From: Octopus vulgaris
Lineage: Eukaryota
DNA: 64,000 nucleotides
Direction of reading: 5' to 3'
Assembly (NCBI GenBank): GCA_951406725.2
Contig: CATOCA020000003.1
Span: forward strand, 1 to 64,000
Each line of letters starts with the position of its first letter. Position 1 is the first letter of the stretch. A program made the position numbers and the translations under genes. The notes below the pieces were generated by a model that saw nothing but the letters and a program-made list of their open reading frames with translations, had not been told where the DNA came from and searched no databases. Positions 19,688 through 38,768 of this stretch are shown here, in pieces.

Positions 19688-19774
19688 AAGGGTGAAAAGG
19701 AACACACGAGTTGATATATATGAAAAAACAAGTAAAAAATAGAAAATGCTAAAATAATTTTATAGTGAACATTT

Positions 19775-19812
19775 CAGTACCGGTTTCGGTCATTTTGAGA
19801 CCTTTTCAACTG
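19775..19812 (-). ncRNA. Minimal hammerhead ribozyme, U3-A8 variant
   Basis: CAG-TTGAAAA-GGTC(tcaaaat)GACC-GAAA-CCGG-TA-CTG; palindromic stem III ACCGGT; located in the PLE 3' UTR. Confidence 0.75.
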
Positions 19813-20785
19813 TAACGATTAAATAATTAAATTTAGAAAAATTAGAAGAAAAGTTTTTTTAAAACAATATTTCTATAGTAGTGTTCAGATTTAAGTGGCA
19901 TTCTGCCTTTCTCTGACTCCCTTGTTTGCACTTGTGTGTTCGAGGTAGTTGTGAGTTCTTGGTAGGGTAGTAGAGGGAAGGCTGGTGAGGAAAGGGGGTG
20001 GGAGAATCTGGGAGTGCCCTGATGGTCGTATTTTGAATGGTCAGTGGCGGCTGGCAGTCTCAGTTCAATTCAGGAGAATATTTATATCGACAGGCTTGTT
20101 TATAGAATTAGCGTAGGTGTTATACTAAAAAACATTAGTGACAAACTTAAGGGGTAGGGGGTGGAGAAGAAGAAGAAGAAGAAGAAGAAGAAGAAGAAGA
20201 AGGAGAAGGAGAAGATGATGGTGATGGTGGTGATGATTATGACGACGATGATGATGATAACGATGATGATGAAGAAGAAGAAGAAGAAGAAGGAGGAGAA
20301 GGAGAAGATGGTGGTGATGATGGTGGCGATGATGATGACGCCGATGATGATGATAACGATGATGATGAAGAAGAAGAAGAAAAAAAAAAAAAAACAGAGA
20401 AGGGAGAATATGAATGGGTGTAAATATAGCTATGAAGGGGCTGATTAGTAATGGATTCTATGGAGTGTAGTATGTGTGTGTGTGTATATATTTTTTTTTC
20501 TTTTATTCTAAAGTTGAGGTATATTAATTGTTTGTCGTAGACCCGTTAAGAAGTGGCTTGTATTTTGTAATAAAGAGATTTTCTTTACTTATTCTTTGTC
20601 TCGAGGTTGTATCGTCCCTAAATTGGTAGAGGGGGAAAATTCTGAAGTTTGGTGTTTTTTTGTTGGCGCAAGTATCTATGTGTTGGCTAAAAGCTATTTT
20701 TCTGTTTTGGGGAATTTTTATCTGGGATCTGTGCAGGGCCATTCGTTTACGCAAACCATTTTTTGTTTGGCCTATGTACTGCTCT

Positions 20786-21721
20786 TTCCTCATTAAGAAA
20801 GCTAATAATATAATAGAAACAGACATATACTATAAGCCTACAGACTCTAAGCAATATCTTCCATTCAATTCATGCCACCCCAGACACACCAGGATGAATA
20901 TCCCCTTCAATCTAGCAAAAAGGATATGCACTATAGTCTCTAACGCAAACACCAGAGACACACGACTACAAGAACTAAAAGATACCCTAATCACCAGGAA
21001 CTATCCACCTTCACTTATTGACAAGTGCATTCAACGTGCCCTTCAACTTAACATCAAGGAACTGAGACATCCCAAATCAAAGAAAAACTTACAACCAAAA
21101 GCCTTACCATACATCTCCACACACAACCCTCTCAATAACGAAGCCTTCGACACCATCCTCCACAACATACCCCTCCTAAAAAAAGAGCACAGAATGAACA
21201 CAATCCTCCAAACACACACGATCATAAAAAGCAAAAGACAGCCTAGATCCATGAAAAGTCTCCTTACACAAGCCCGAATTCACTCTTCAACACAGAAGCC
21301 GACAGTAAAAAAATGTGGAAGACCCAATTGCGGGATATGCGACTATCTAATCGAGGGTTCTGAGTTCTCCTTCAAACAGGGACAACGGTTTACAGTGAAA
21401 AGCAACTTCACATGTGCTTCGGAGAACCTAATATACTCACTAACCTGCTCCGGGTGTCAAGAGCAGTACATAGGCCAAACAAAAAATGGTTTGCGTAAAC
21501 GAATGGCCCTGCACAGATCCCAGATAAAAATTCCCCAAAACAGAAAAATAGCTTTTAGCCAACACATAGATACTTGCGCCAACAAAAAAACACCAAACTT
21601 CAGAATTTTCCCCCTCTACCAATTTAGGGACGATACAACCTCGAGACAAAGAATAAGTAAAGAAAATCTCTTTATTACAAAATACAAGCCACTTCTTAAC
21701 GGGTCTACGACAAACAATTAA
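20786..21721 (+). CDS. PLE polyprotein C-terminal part (RT thumb, Cys linker, GIY-YIG endonuclease)
   Basis: TDIYYKPTDSKQYLPFNSCHP; CGRPNCGIC; FTCASENLIYSLTCSGCQEQYIGQT; KPLLN. Open frame, 5'-truncated. Confidence 0.9.
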   Translation, partial: FLIKKANNIIETDIYYKPTDSKQYLPFNSCHPRHTRMNIPFNLAKRICTIVSNANTRDTRLQELKDTLITRNYPPSLIDKCIQRALQLNIKELRHPKSKKNLQPKALPYISTHNPLNNEAFDTILHNIPLLKKEHRMNTILQTHTIIKSKRQPRSMKSLLTQARIHSSTQKPTVKKCGRPNCGICDYLIEGSEFSFKQGQRFTVKSNFTCASENLIYSLTCSGCQEQYIGQTKNGLRKRMALHRSQIKIPQNRKIAFSQHIDTCANKKTPNFRIFPLYQFRDDTTSRQRISKENLFITKYKPLLNGSTTNN

Positions 21722-22422
21722 TATACCTCAACTTTAGAATAAAAGAAAAAAATATATATACACACACACATACTACACTCCATAGAATCCATTACTAATC
21801 AGCCCCTTCATAGCTATATTTACACCCATTCATATTCTCCCTTCTCTGTTTTTTTTTTCTTCTTCTTCTTCATCATCATCGTTATCATCATCATCGGCGT
21901 CATCATCATCGCCACCATCATCACCACCATCTTCTCCTTCTCCTCCTTCTTCTTCTTCTTCTTCTTCATCATCATCGTTATCATCATCATCGTCGTCATA
22001 ATCATCACCACCATCACCATCATCTTCTCCTTCTCCTTCTTCTTCTTCTTCTTCTTCTTCTTCTTCTTCTCCACCCCCTACCCCTTAAGTTTGTCACTAA
22101 TGTTTTTTAGTATAACACCTACGCTAATTCTATAAACAAGCCTGTCGATATAAATATTCTCCTGAATTGAACTGAGACTGCCAGCCGCCACTGACCATTC
22201 AAAATACGACCATCAGGGCACTCCCAGATTCTCCCACCCCCTTTCCTCACCAGCCTTCCCTCTACTACCCTACCAAGAACTCACAACTACCTCGAACACA
22301 CAAGTGCAAACAAGGGAGTTAGAGAAAGGCAGAATGCCACTTAAATCTGAACACTACTATAGAAATATTGTTTTAAAAAAACTTTTCTTCTAATTTTTCT
22401 AAATTTAATTATTTAATCGTTA

Positions 22423-22460
22423 CAGTTGAAAACGTTTCAAAATGACCGAAACCGGTACTG
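22423..22460 (+). ncRNA. Hammerhead copy with disrupted stem II
   Basis: Same as 19775-19812 but GGTCT is changed to CGTTT in stem II. Confidence 0.6.
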
Positions 22461-22727
22461 AAATGTTCACTATAAAATTATTTTAGCATTTTCTATTTTT
22501 TACTTGTTTTTTCATATATATATATATATATACATACAGATCTGACTGGCCTGGTGCAGCCTTCGGGCTCCCCAGACTCCAGTTGAACTGTCCAACCCAT
22601 GCTAGCATGGAAAGCGGACGTTAAATGAGGATGATGATGATGATGATGATAATGATATTGATATATATATGTATATATATATATATATATATAATGATAT
22701 TGATATATATATAATGATATTGATATA

Positions 22728-22765
<38 letters not shown>

Positions 22766-22812
22766 GATATTGATATATATATGTATATATAATGATATTG
22801 ATATATATATAT

Positions 22813-25130
22813 CGTGTCCGGTTGGGTGCGCATTACCACGAATCGCCACCCACACCCAACGAAGAGGACGACTGCTTCACTGGCCTGGGCCGCCGACCAT
22901 CCCCGTGGACGCCTGCCCCTGGCCAGATCCTAGCAGTGGATCTTTTCGCGGGCGCTTGTCAGCGTGCATTGGAGCGGTTCAACTTCTCCAGGCGCCAACG
23001 CCGCCTCAACATCTCCCCGGCTGAGCTCTTGGCTCTTCGTTCCCTCCAACGGTGCGCTGACATTATCATCAAACCGGCTGACAAGGGTGGAGCTGTAGTG
23101 GTGTGGCGCGCGGACCTCTATAGGGCCGAGGCTTTCCGCCAACTCAATGACACCTCCTTCTATTCCCCTCTGCCCTCTAACCCCACACGTAGCTACCAAC
23201 AGACGGTATCCTCTACTGTCCAAGACCTCATCTCGTCCTCCCGTCTCCCCCGCACCGCATCCAACCTAATTGTGCGAACCCCACGTACCCCCACCATTTA
23301 CTTCCTCCCCAAAATCCACAAACCCAACAACCCTGGCCGCCCCATCGTCTCCGCCTGTAACTGCCCCACGGAGCTCATCTCTAAATACCTCGACCGTGTC
23401 CTTGCCCCCTAGTGGCATCTCTTCCCTCCCACATCCACGATACCAACCATGCTCTCCAGCTTTTCAACTCTTTCTCCTTTCCTCCCGGCTCCTCCAAAAT
23501 CCTTTTTACTATGGACATCCAAAGCCTCTATACTGTTATCCCTCACCACGAAGGACTGCAGGCCCTTCGACACTTTCTTGACCTCCGCTCTAACCCTGTA
23601 CCTGACACCTCCACACTCATTCGTCTGGCCGAACTTGTCCTTACTCTGAACTGCTTCTCGTTCGCGGGCGAGTTCTACCATCAGGTCTCGGGAGTGGCCA
23701 TGGGAACGCGAATGGGCCCCAACTATGCGAACCTGTTCGTTGGCTATGTTGAGGCCCAAATATTCTCTAATTTCACTGGTCCCACTCCTGAACTATATGG
23801 TCGTTATATTGACGACATTATCGGTGCCACCTCACTCTCCCGCGAACATCTAGATTCCTTCCTCTCTTTCATCCAATCTTTCCATCCAGCCCTCCACTTC
23901 ACTTCCACTATCTCCAACACCTCTGTCTCCTTCCTCGACATTTCGGTTAGCATTCTTGACTCCACTCTTACCACCTCCATTCACTACAAACACACAGACT
24001 CACACTCATACCTCAACTTCTCTTCCTCCCACCCAGAACACACCAAGCTTTCCATCCCCTATTCCCAATTCCTCCGTCTACGTAGGCTCTGTAGTGACGA
24101 CCATGACTTTGAGACTCAGTCTCAACGTATGGCTCACCACTTCACCCTACGTGGATACCCCCTCACCACTATCCACACCGCCCTTGCCAGAGCACGGTCC
24201 GTGGACCGTGTATCTGCTCTCTCTCCCCGAACCCGCCCTGTAGTCTCCCGCCTCCCTTTTCCCCTCACTTACCACCCCACGACCCTACGTCTCCAACGCA
24301 CCATTCTTCGAGCTTTCCGTCATCTCCAGTCCGACCCGTCCACTTCACACCTCTTCCCTAACCGACCCCTCCCCTCTTTCAAACGAGCCCACAACCTTCG
24401 AGACCTTTTGGTCCATAGCTCCTTCCCTGACCCTACCTCCCAACCCGGCTCGTTCCCCTGCTCCCGCCCACGTTGCCGCACTTGCCCTTACCTCTCCAAC
24501 ACCACCCGCCTCACTAGCACCCACCATCGACCCTATCCCATCATCCACTCCTTCACCTGCACCTCCAGCAATATTATCTATTGCATCTCTTGCTCTCTCT
24601 GCAATTCCTTGTACATCGGACAAACGGGACGCCGCTTGGCTGACCGGTTCGCGGAACACCTTCGTGACATCCACCTTGTGAACGACACACCGGTCTCACG
24701 CCATTTCCGCTCCACCGGTCACTCCTTGCAACACCTATCTGTGTTCGGTTTGTCCTTACACAGAGGCCATCCGGATTCCCGTTTGCGCCGTGAACAGGAA
24801 TTAATCTTCTCTCTTCGCTCTTATACGCCATTTGGTCTCAACTCTCCCCCCTCCTCATCTAACCCCCCTCTCCCCCCTCCTCACCTATCCTTTCTCCCCC
24901 GACCCCTACTTCTTCAGTCCTTCATCCTTTCACCCCTACTCCCCTTCCCTTCTTCCCTCTTTCTCCCTCCCTCTTCCCCTTCCCTCTGCTCCCTCACTCC
25001 CTCTCTCCCCTTCTCTCTCCCCCTCTCCCTCTTTCCTCCTTCATCCTTCTCCCCCATCCTCTCCTCTTCACCCTCCCCTCCCCCTCCCCTTCTTCTCCCC
25101 TCCCCCTCTTCTCCTCACTACACCACATGA
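22813..25130 (+). CDS. PLE reverse transcriptase-GIY-YIG polyprotein, single frameshift at ~23409
   Basis: [15 protein letters not shown]...[46 protein letters not shown]...YIGQTGR, PFGLN. Restoring one C joins the two ORFs as [19 protein letters not shown]. Confidence 0.9.
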
Positions 25131-25656
25131 CTTTACACACCACATCACATATGATGTGCCATACTAATACACACACCAACTAATACATACTAATACGTAC
25201 CAATACATACTAGTACATACTAATACTTACACCAACCCTATACATACACACGTCCAGACCCCGCATACGCACTTATACTCTCTCACACACACACACACAC
25301 ACCTATACATACCAATACGTACTAATACATACTAATACATACTAATACATACACCAACCCCATACATACGCACGTCCAGACCAATCCTACGCACTAATAC
25401 TCTCTCATACACACACACACACACACACACACCCTTATACATACTAATACATACACCAACCCTATACATACACACATCCAGACCCCTCCCACGCACTTTT
25501 AGCTGGTCCCTCAACCCTATTATCTCCCCTTATTTCGCTCTCGTGTCTCATGTTTGATCTTTGACCTCTGGCCGAAATCAGATCGCCATGTTGATTCGTT
25601 AGCTACTGCACGCATTTTTTTCTCTCCTTCTTTCTGTGTTTTTCTCTCTCTGTGTA

Positions 25657-25694
25657 TCTTTCTGTTGAAGAGCGTAGGCTCGAAACGTTAAAGA
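25657..25694 (+). ncRNA. Minimal hammerhead ribozyme-like motif (A6U core)
   Basis: TCTTT-CTGTTGA-A-GAGC(gtag)GCTC-GAAA-CG-TT-AAAGA; 5-bp stem I; palindromic AACGTT. Confidence 0.7.
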
Positions 25695-25821
25695 CTTGTT
25701 TTATTTATATTTCCTGAGCGCCATACTAATACAATTGTTCGTTTGTTTTCCACCTGCCTTCGTCTTTTGTTTATTTTCATAAAGCTTCCCGTTATATATA
25801 TATATACATATAATGATATTG

Positions 25822-27913: not shown

Positions 27914-30651
27914 TGATTGATTGATTGATTGATTCCAGTTTCAGCTTATGAGCTGTGGCCATGCTGAGGCACCGCCATTTGGTGTTGCTACTTGGTTTCA
28001 CTTCATGGAGGCTTTCTAGCAACTGCTATTTGGTGCATGAGAGAGTTCGATGCAGCTGCCCTCATCTGCCCCTCCTGCCGTGAAGTTGGTTCATCTGGGA
28101 CACCTGACAGGAAGAGATCCAGCTTCATTTTAAAGACATCTGTATCCACCCCATGCAGGTCTCTCAGGTTCTTCGGGAGGATATTGAAGAGCTGTGGGCC
28201 TCGGAAGCCCAGGCTATCACAGAATCTTGTCCTACATCTTGATGGCAGGTTTGGAGTCCTAGGCACCACGCAGTGGCGCCCAGTTCTGGCATTTGCGTAA
28301 CTCTCGATGCCAAAGTTCAGGACACTTCCCTCCAGGATCTTCCAGATGTATATTATGGCATATCTTTCCCGCCTACGCTCCAGGGAATATAATTTTAATC
28401 TCTTGAGTCTTTCCCAGTAGCTTACATTCTGCATAGAGGCTATCTTCTTTGTGTAGCTTCGTTGGATCGCCTCAAGTTCTGTGATCAACTTGACACTGGA
28501 CGGTGACCATAGCTGAGAGCAATAGTCAAAGTGGCTTAGGACAAGTGTCTTCCAGAGGACCATCATGGTTTCTTGTTCTCTTGTTCTAAAGGTTCTAAGA
28601 ATCCATCCAGCCAGCCGTCTACATTTCATTGTCAGTTTAGCAACATGTACATGAAAGGTCGCGTCATCACTCATGTGAATACCCAGGTCACGCACTGATT
28701 GTGCCTCTGGGATTGCAATCCCTCCGGGTCCAGTGTATTCATTGGGTATTGCATTCAGTTTTGCATGCTGATAGTATAAAGCTTGAAACTTTCCAGCATT
28801 GAACTGCATGCTATTCTTTTCAGCCCACTTGTATATTTTGTCCAGCTCACATTGCAGGTGTTTAGTGTCCTCAGGGTTCTGTATTGCCTGTGAAACTTTT
28901 GTATCATCTGCATAACTTGTGATCGTGGCTCTCTGCGTGGCTGAGGGCATGTCTGAGAGGGCCATTATGAATAGTAGTGGTCCCAGAACAGTGCCCTGCG
29001 GAACACCGCTCACTATTTGTGTGTTAATGGAGGTGGCCCCATTGGCTACTACCACCTGACTTCTATCCTTCAGAAAGTCATGAAGCCATTCTCCCAGTTT
29101 TCCAACTATGTTGAGATCACGCAGTTTGTGACATATCATTCCATGATCGACTTTATCAAAGGCCTTTGCAAAGTCGAGATATATCACTTCCACATTTGAG
29201 TGGTTGAGCAGCCGTTTCAGCACCCAGTCATAGTGTTGTAGGAGCTGAGTTAAACAGCTTCTCCCTGGTCGGAAACCATGTTGGGTGTCGGGCAGCAAGT
29301 CATTCTCTTCAAGGAAGGTGATCAGCTTCCTTCTGACTATTCGTTCCATGACCTTGCTGATGTGTGAGGTCAGAGAGATAGGTCTATAGTTCTTGGCTTC
29401 CACTCTGCTACCTCCTTTATGAATGGGGCATATTTTACCTTCCTTCAGTTTTCCTGGAAGTTTGCCAGCTGCAAGGAAGCTCTGAAAGAGGAACTGCAGT
29501 GGTCTTGCTAGGACTCTCTTACATGCTTTTAGGAGGATTGCCGGGAATCCATCGGGGCCAGTAGCTGAGTCTGTTTTCATTTCATCTATAGCCTTGGTTA
29601 CATCGTCTTCCTTTATATCGATGTAATCTATCGTCGCCGCCTCTGATTTTATATCTGCAGTGGTAAAAAAGTCAGTTGGATTGGTGATTTGGAGATGCCC
29701 AAGGGGTGGAGTGAAAACACTCTTGAATTGCTCATTCAGTATTTCACTTACCCTCATTGGTTTTCCTGTAAGTGTGCCATCCTTTTCGAGGAGTGGCCCT
29801 ATTCTACAGTGCACTGTAGCTGTTTCTTTGGCATACCTGTAGAAAGCTCTGGGGTTAGATTTTATGTTTTCTATAGCCCAGGCTTCTTTGTCTGCTCTTT
29901 CTTTTTCATGGGAGAGTTGCAGACATTTTTCGATTTCCAACAGTTTTATTTTTAGGCGGGACTTTTCACTGCTTTCAATCTGTTTGTTTAGGCGATTTGA
30001 AAATTTCGTACGCCGTCTCATTAAAATTTTCCTCTCTCTGGGGATTTTGTTCTTGTGTACAGTGGCCTTTCTCTCTGGGACACATTTGTAGCATATGGCT
30101 TGCATTACAGACATGAATTGTTGAAGTTTCACGTCGATGTCTGGCGAGGAGAGACATTTAGGCCAGTTTTGTTTGAGGATCTCTTTCTCAATTTGTTTCC
30201 AGTTTGCCTTATGGTAGTTCAAGCTGGAAAGATTTTGAGGGTTTCTTGTAGGCTGCATGTCCGTGCTCTCTTTTGGCCCGTACATGGTCAGCTCTATCAT
30301 GTTGTGATCCGAGAGTAGTGTCGGTGTCACTTTCACATTATGGATGAGATCCATGTCATTTGTGAAGCAGAGATCCAGTGTGTTACCTGCCCTGGTTGGT
30401 TGGAGTATTACCTGCTCCATGTACAGGGTGTTGATGAGGTTCAGGAGGGACCTCGCCTGTCCTCGTTCACATCTTGTCATTCCTGGGAGAGAAAGGCCCT
30501 CGGGCCATCTGACATTGGGCAGATTGAAGTCTCCCATAAGAAGCACACTTATGTGTTGTTCTAATGTGGTTAGAATTTCTTCTATTTTTATAAGGCAGCC
30601 TTCAAACTTGCCCACATGGCTTGGGGCATCTGGAGGGCGATATGTAGCACA
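27914..30651 (-). mobile_element. CR1/L2-group LINE, 5'-truncated within the APE domain, (AATC)n tail
   Basis: Uninterrupted ORF2, short 3' UTR, TA tracts on both sides. Confidence 0.92.
28003..30651 (-). CDS. LINE ORF2 (partial apurinic endonuclease + RT)
   Basis: [74 protein letters not shown]. The predicted extension to 31314 is microsatellite. Confidence 0.92.
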
Positions 30652-35506
<4,855 letters not shown>

Positions 35507-36387: not shown

Positions 36388-38634
<2,247 letters not shown>

Positions 38635-38637
<3 letters not shown>

Positions 38638-38768
38638 TCTGTCGAAGAGCTTAGGCTCGAAACGTAAAAGACTTGTTTTTTTTCTATTCCTCAGCGCCAT
38701 ACTAATACAACTGTTTGTTTGTACTGCACCTGCCTTCGTCTTTTGTTTATTTTCGTAAACCTTCCCAT
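38635..38768 (+). mobile_element. Solo PLE-2-family 3' terminus starting at the hammerhead
   Basis: Aligns with 25659-25792. TTT-CTGTCGA-A-GAGC(ttag)GCTC-GAAA-CG-TA-AAA at 38636-38669. Confidence 0.85.

Follow-up and report, generated by a model that had tools for sequence, protein, structure and literature searches.

A candidate pseudo-LTR hammerhead with uridine at core position 6 in a Penelope-like element family of Octopus vulgaris

For the hammerheads of metazoan Penelope-like elements (PLEs), Cervera and de la Pena (2014, PMC4209133) give a consensus that reads CUGANGAH and, further along, a palindrome; all 56 of the 56 representatives in their figure S3 carry A at position 6, under a descriptor that required the core letters. 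These minimal hammerheads (min-HHRs) are described there as inactive as monomers and of low activity as dimers, those with a canonical core being slow in vitro, and PLE-associated dimeric variants with a short palindromic stem III and cleavage as dimers were reported by Lunse, Weinberg and Breaker (2017; summarized in PMC6765202). In the Poseidon element of Anolis carolinensis (Frangieh 2024, PMC11167929), cutting by the hammerhead required protein, insertion in vitro was unaffected by catalytic mutations, no RNA-seq reads stopped at the cut site, and reverse transcription starts inside the RNA, downstream of the ribozyme. Substitutions at or near position 6 have been studied elsewhere—a natural A6C hammerhead in one phage RNA is slow yet active (under 0.1 per min); in another ribozyme A6C slowed cleavage at 0.3 mM Mg from 0.3 to 3.55e-6 per min, with no collapse in Mn; and in a mutational scan of another hammerhead every single mutant of the CUGA turn was weak, a second change restoring activity only in the C3/G8 swap. 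Our literature search, in which subscription papers mostly lay outside the scope, returned the natural A6C and no natural A6U hammerhead; the main text of a paper on octopus repeats (PMC13282606) makes no mention of ribozymes.

The window analysed here is a stretch of 64,000 nucleotides of Octopus vulgaris DNA (GCA_951406725.2, contig CATOCA020000003.1, positions 1 to 64,000), for which a first-pass annotation had proposed two hammerhead motifs with U at the normally invariant A6. They are laid out as follows.

25657-25694, + strand: hammerhead motif copy 1, minimal type I (from sequence and descriptor scans)
25657-25661 and 25690-25694, +: stem I of copy 1, 5 bp
25662-25668, +: core C3 to A9 of copy 1, with C3 at 25662, U6 at 25665, N7 (U) at 25666 and A9 at 25668
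25669, +: extra A, after A9
25670-25681, +: stem II of copy 1, 4 bp with a 4-nt loop
25682-25684, +: G12 to A14 of copy 1, with G12 at 25682
25685-25688, +: palindrome A15.1-C-G-U16.1 of copy 1, a stem III without a loop
25689, +: H17 (U) of copy 1, with the predicted cut directly after it
38636-38669, + strand: hammerhead motif copy 2, with C3 at 38639, U6 at 38642, N7 = C, H17 = A at 38666 and a 3-bp stem I

Both motifs are present on the + strand where the annotation had placed them, and a relaxed minimal-hammerhead descriptor that allowed one core deviation matched four sites in the window, whereas 40 block-wise dinucleotide shuffles of it gave no match at all. The type I order (stem I, core, stem II, GAAA, stem III, UH, stem I) is found in both copies, with stems I and II formed in cis and a stem III that could pair only between two copies. 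C3, U4, G5, G8, A9, G12, A13, A14, A15.1-U16.1 and H17 are likewise found in both, together with the hallmarks of min-HHRs (a nucleotide between 9 and 10.1, G10.1-C11.1, and palindromic 15.2-16.2). A is absent at position 6, where both window copies carry U, as had been claimed. Copy 2 is otherwise laid out like copy 1, with one change in loop II. The three differences first listed between the copies, at N7, loop II and the cleavage base, all hold; a fourth, C25658 against G38635, lies just outside the interval then quoted and removes the outer stem I pairs in copy 2, whose side of this difference may be flanking repeat DNA that follows a 5' truncation. Rfam gave no hammerhead match at either copy, at the gathering score or at E up to 10, a null result that says little because the window's A6 and U3-A8 motifs were also missed at the gathering score. 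The extra A and the loopless palindromic stem III, to which the first-pass annotation had also drawn attention, are real, but they and the predicted folding as a dimer are published hallmarks of this class (PMC4209133), and thus only U6 is unusual. In a folding computation, the intermolecular 4-bp stem III of two ACGU palindromes contributes only -1.7 kcal/mol, and copy 1 has no upstream pseudo-LTR partner.

The surroundings of both motifs belong to a single kind of element.

22813-24836, + strand: 5'-truncated Penelope-like ORF (from homologues and domain motifs), with one frame break at about 23406-23409
24837-25791, + strand: 3' untranslated part and pseudo-LTR of the same element (from sequence)
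38633-38768, + strand: stub of the copy 2 element, 5'-truncated, lying between TA-rich repeats, 89% identical to copy 1

The ORF carries a DKG motif near 23080, the reverse transcriptase (RT) YIDD at 23805, a CX2-5CxxC linker at 24459, and a GIY-YIG domain from 24573 with an internal CxxC and a His pair from 24657. Its RVT_1 match (E 3.5e-06) falls just under the curated cut-off; the RT-endonuclease (RT-EN) has 629 homologues at E up to 0.001, and full-length homologues cover 22804-23409 (47-52% identity) and 23406-24836 (53-56%) in two frames. An RT followed by a GIY-YIG endonuclease with a CCHH motif is the arrangement of PLEs with a C-terminal endonuclease, here with one frame break. Because a CX2-5CxxC linker and microsatellite targets mark Neptune or Nematis elements (Craig 2021), the linker and the TA-rich flanks lead us to class the host as a Penelope element of either the Neptune or the Nematis type. 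It starts at about 22813, after TA repeats, and its 3' part comprises a C/T-rich tract, an imperfect repeat (about 25169-25497) and a pyrimidine tract before the ribozyme. Copy 1 of the motif lies about 820 nt downstream of the RT-EN homology, on the same strand and about 100 nt from the 3' end, the pseudo-LTR location of min-HHRs, and the tail of about 100 nt beyond the predicted cut runs to the end of the element at 25791, in (TA)n. What remains of copy 2 is a 3' stub of about 135 nt, beginning at the 5' arm of stem I. Truncated, frame-broken and lacking a pseudo-LTR partner, copy 1 is itself probably inert, whatever the family does. The family was not taken for a non-LTR retrozyme (tandem non-coding repeats with a hammerhead in each), since each copy stands alone and copy 1 adjoins an RT-EN ORF. 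Nor do the joints of aligned contigs support the idea that the pyrimidine tract precedes a cryptic 3' splice site.

Several further features were recorded in the window, outside this family.

541-681, + strand: short insertion between TA repeats
633-667, + strand: related minimal hammerhead within that insertion, with A6 and with U4 changed to C (descriptor; outside the U6 family)
1203-1317, - strand: match to 5S rRNA, 66.9 bits, with a degenerate terminal stem
19714-22521: second, different Penelope-like element, with an RT tail and GIY-YIG (ORF 20630-21721)
28003-30640, - strand, and 31541-33500, - strand: two long reverse-transcriptase ORFs, non-LTR-like

Before (TA)n, the insertion at 541-681 shares its last letters with the U6 family, of which it is probably, on that sequence likeness, a sister family. 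The second Penelope-like element contains an inverted duplication of 1,073 bp (98.7% identity) and a U3-A8 hammerhead; this is intact at 19809 on the - strand, and the + copy at 22426 differs by two changes in stem II. The 5S match is a pseudogene or a 5S-derived repeat, and the two reverse-transcriptase ORFs are, from their translations, presumably CR1-like and RTE-like.

We then ask how far U6 extends beyond the two copies. The motif-bearing regions are 89.0% identical over 146 nt and therefore represent one family, so that a common U6 could be plain descent and the pair alone cannot prove fixation; of the earlier description of two diverged PLE termini, the PLE terminus stands (RT, linker and GIY-YIG lie upstream), whereas separate divergence does not. 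Twenty public runs, drawn from 8 studies and filed under three organism labels, contain most of the element. Contigs of four of these runs (X1, X2 and X12 under label A, X3 under label B) were aligned to 25520-25790 (271 nt) at 80% likeness and a 1% share, with 4,663 to 27,386 contigs placed per run; the four runs sample one family and are not independent tests, and contig depth is no copy count. Position 6 (25665) shows no variant among the 40 variant rows listed of 51 across the four runs. For X12 the listed rows account for every place at or above 1%, and none is 25665, so only U reaches 1% there; for X3 all three T>A places lie elsewhere, which puts A6 below 1% of depth. X1 and X2 have one T>A place each outside the listed rows, as X1, X2 and X3 have T>C or T>G places. 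At the neighbouring position N7, A makes up 12-26% and G 1-14% of contig depth; at H17, A makes up 55-87%, and G stays below 1% in X1, X2 and X12. Since these two positions vary widely, single changes are detectable by this approach, and U6 must co-occur with several N7 letters and with both H17 states. The 80% likeness favours query-like copies; the listed rows include neither the N7 = C of copy 2 nor its loop change.

U6 is thus family-wide, found in nearly all aligned contig depth, and it is kept under both organism labels, A and B. The first-pass annotation had called U6 fixed in the family on the strength of two copies, an argument that was insufficient for a claim the contigs now bear out, and its own question of whether most copies have A6 is answered by the depth of A6 in X3 and X12, below 1% in each. 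Contig depth peaks over the motif in all four runs; as summed depth is inflated where the graph branches, we do not rely on this peak for copy count or for sharing between families. At the borders 25658 and 25697, hundreds of contigs per run match the motif and then enter unrelated flanks, which suggests that the hammerhead may be common to other families; these loose-end contigs could fall under the 1% limit, and their position 6 is unreadable. The predicted cut is the start of none of the 24 loose ends listed of 573.

For comparison, we searched for related hammerheads elsewhere. A metagenome scan with this stem II pattern and any letter allowed at position 6, covering 4 of 64 parts, returned 110 matches at 103 loci, with A at position 6 in 105, G in 3, C in 2 and U in none. 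In 94 of these the pattern is followed by G, and stem III is longer and near-palindromic, so that they serve as a control for position 6 rather than for the loopless form; the other 16 are all A6. At one locus (L037) an A6 hammerhead lies behind an RT-EN that is 44.5% identical to that of the copy 1 element. The abundant hammerhead families to which the 94 matches belong (among L001-L103) have U as the extra nucleotide, and several occur as close inverted pairs. In a viral collection, just one of 31 U6-pattern hits in the whole set is a complete hammerhead, against 113 of 129 A6 hits in 5 of its 64 parts; the remaining 30 U6-pattern hits, with poor stems I and III, were taken as chance, as was the lone U6-pattern hit of a genome collection (L104), in which stem I is unpaired. 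The viral collection gave no hit for the PLE-type pattern and no relative of the RT. Compared with these relatives, U6 is probably a derived trait of the octopus family, and A6 the ancestral state.

The reading we prefer, to which we give about an even chance, is that of a pseudo-LTR hammerhead of an abundant Penelope-like family in which A6 was replaced by U, attenuated but still conserved. It likely still folds and, going by the published mutants, would cut only slowly. U6 would have arisen once from A6 in a master lineage, with later lineages altering N7 and H17 while keeping the other core letters, from which we infer that the fold stayed under selection. By analogy with what is published on PLEs, a tandem transcript would let two copies pair their ACGU palindromes into stem III and cut as a dimer, probably with help from the element's protein. 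Reverse transcription would begin downstream of the 3' ribozyme, at a distance of about 100 nt, and would have to cross an uncut site, so that slow cleavage would be cheap and may even help, which would explain how U6 could spread; copies 1 and 2 in the window both extend 5' of the predicted cut, and their templates were therefore uncut there.

The distribution of changes within the motif bears both on this reading and on its strongest competitor, a serious though less probable one, in which U6 inactivated the ribozyme in a master element, amplification went on without cleavage, and the core looks conserved because the family is young. In each run, changes in at least 10% of depth occur at none of 27 constrained sites and at 2 of 7 free ones (Fisher p 0.037). 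These two are N7 and H17, both left free by the hammerhead consensus, the first showing all four letters when copy 2 is counted, and this concentration, along with the exclusion of G from H17 in three runs and the persistence of U6 under both labels, argues against a dead core; the other five of the seven "free" positions are invariant. The sole listed change in stem II (25673 C>T, 1-6%) keeps a wobble pair. On the other side, changes are not significantly fewer at the constrained sites than in the flanks (0/27 vs 12-15/192, p 0.23-0.38), and G16.2>A (25687), which breaks the palindrome, reaches 4-8.5% of depth; G8>A is found in 1-2% and outer stem I changes in 4-14%. There is no C>T at 25686 to match G16.2>A in X12 or X2, and this change looks like a subfamily without the dimer palindrome rather than CpG decay. 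Overall, the sign of continued selection on the fold is modest. A dead core would also agree with the strong impairment of position-6 and CUGA-turn mutants, with the near absence of U6 where cutting is presumably selected (the viral counts above), and with the anole element, which inserts in vitro with catalytic mutants and in which no RNA-seq reads stopped at the cut site (PMC11167929). Given the weakness of CUGA-turn mutants, and as fixation can come from one successful master copy, the earlier verdict of a ribozyme variant rather than decay goes beyond what these observations allow.

More tentatively still, U6 may be a selected, conditional core and the first natural A6U hammerhead family. 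Free RNA in Mg would then be nearly silent until the RT-EN protein, dimer formation or Mn activated it, which would leave the 3' ribozyme uncut for reverse transcription while tandem transcripts are still processed.

It is rather unlikely that the motif has been repurposed as a non-cutting hairpin, a structural or protein-binding signal in which a rod of U4-G16.2, G5-C15.2, U6-A15.1 and U7-A14 hides the palindrome. This is the predicted fold of copy 1, with a probability of 0.98 for G5-C15.2; the cost of opening it, 2.5 kcal/mol, falls to 0.2 if position 6 may not pair, and G16.2>A would convert its U-G pair to U-A. However, 13 A6 relatives lock equally in another register (median opening cost 5.3 kcal/mol), copy 2, when folded with 8-nt flanks, favours a different structure, and N7 = A or G, at up to about a third of depth, breaks U7-A14. 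A lock due to U6 was accordingly dropped as a distinctive feature of the family, A6 relatives locking as strongly.

Full activity, with U6 neutral and the dimer, the extra A or a tertiary contact compensating for it, appears very improbable. Family-wide fixation alongside free variation at N7 and H17 would fit it, as would the complete viral hammerhead (L133, also L262), a type III motif on a phage contig with U6 and perfect stems, but that pattern matched no other contig and is a singleton, pairwise mutagenesis of another hammerhead gave no compensating pair in this region, and PLE hammerheads with a canonical core are themselves slow in vitro. Weakest of all is sporadic decay of two related copies, which the 89% identity of the copies, several copy 2 changes not among the listed population rows and the sporadic non-A6 letters in 5 of the 110 matches elsewhere might suggest, but which the near absence of A6 in X3 and X12 largely refutes.

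What is new here is a single letter, U6, the extra A, palindrome and dimer having been published already. PLE hammerheads occur widely and cut slowly in vitro, and one element could do without cleavage when inserting in vitro. A family that is very abundant despite a substitution expected to cripple the core thus amounts to a natural experiment on the need for fast self-cutting. If the U6 RNA is dead, fast cleavage would be dispensable in vivo too; if it cuts, A6 would be one more of the few core positions at which nature has a working alternative, and whole families would escape descriptors that insist on CUGANGA.

Among known systems, Poseidon resembles the U6 element in that its hammerhead lies about 100 nt before the 3' end of the element, but it belongs to the Penelope/Poseidon clade and its ORF starts inside the ribozyme (PMC11167929), whereas there is no ATG in 25690-25791. 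The dimeric variants of Lunse and colleagues, compared through a summary (PMC6765202), share the form of stem III and the dimer. The A6C hammerhead of phage Bcep176 (Perreault 2011, PMC3088659; Naghdi 2020, PMC7151607) also has a natural pyrimidine at position 6, with low activity in Mg and an expected loss of core hydrogen bonds, both as predicted for U6; it differs in being a C at one phage locus with measured activity and Mn preference, while U6 marks an abundant animal retroelement family known by sequence. The closest match is with the min-HHRs of PMC4209133, which share the pseudo-LTR location, the short helix I, the nucleotide between 9 and 10.1, G10.1-C11.1, the palindromic 15.2-16.2, the lack of loop 3, the predicted dimer and the occurrence mostly as single truncated copies. 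The Neptune motif from Acropora digitifera in that paper is nearly identical to the motif described here, and what sets the octopus family apart from the class is U6, the only core change described there being U3-A8.
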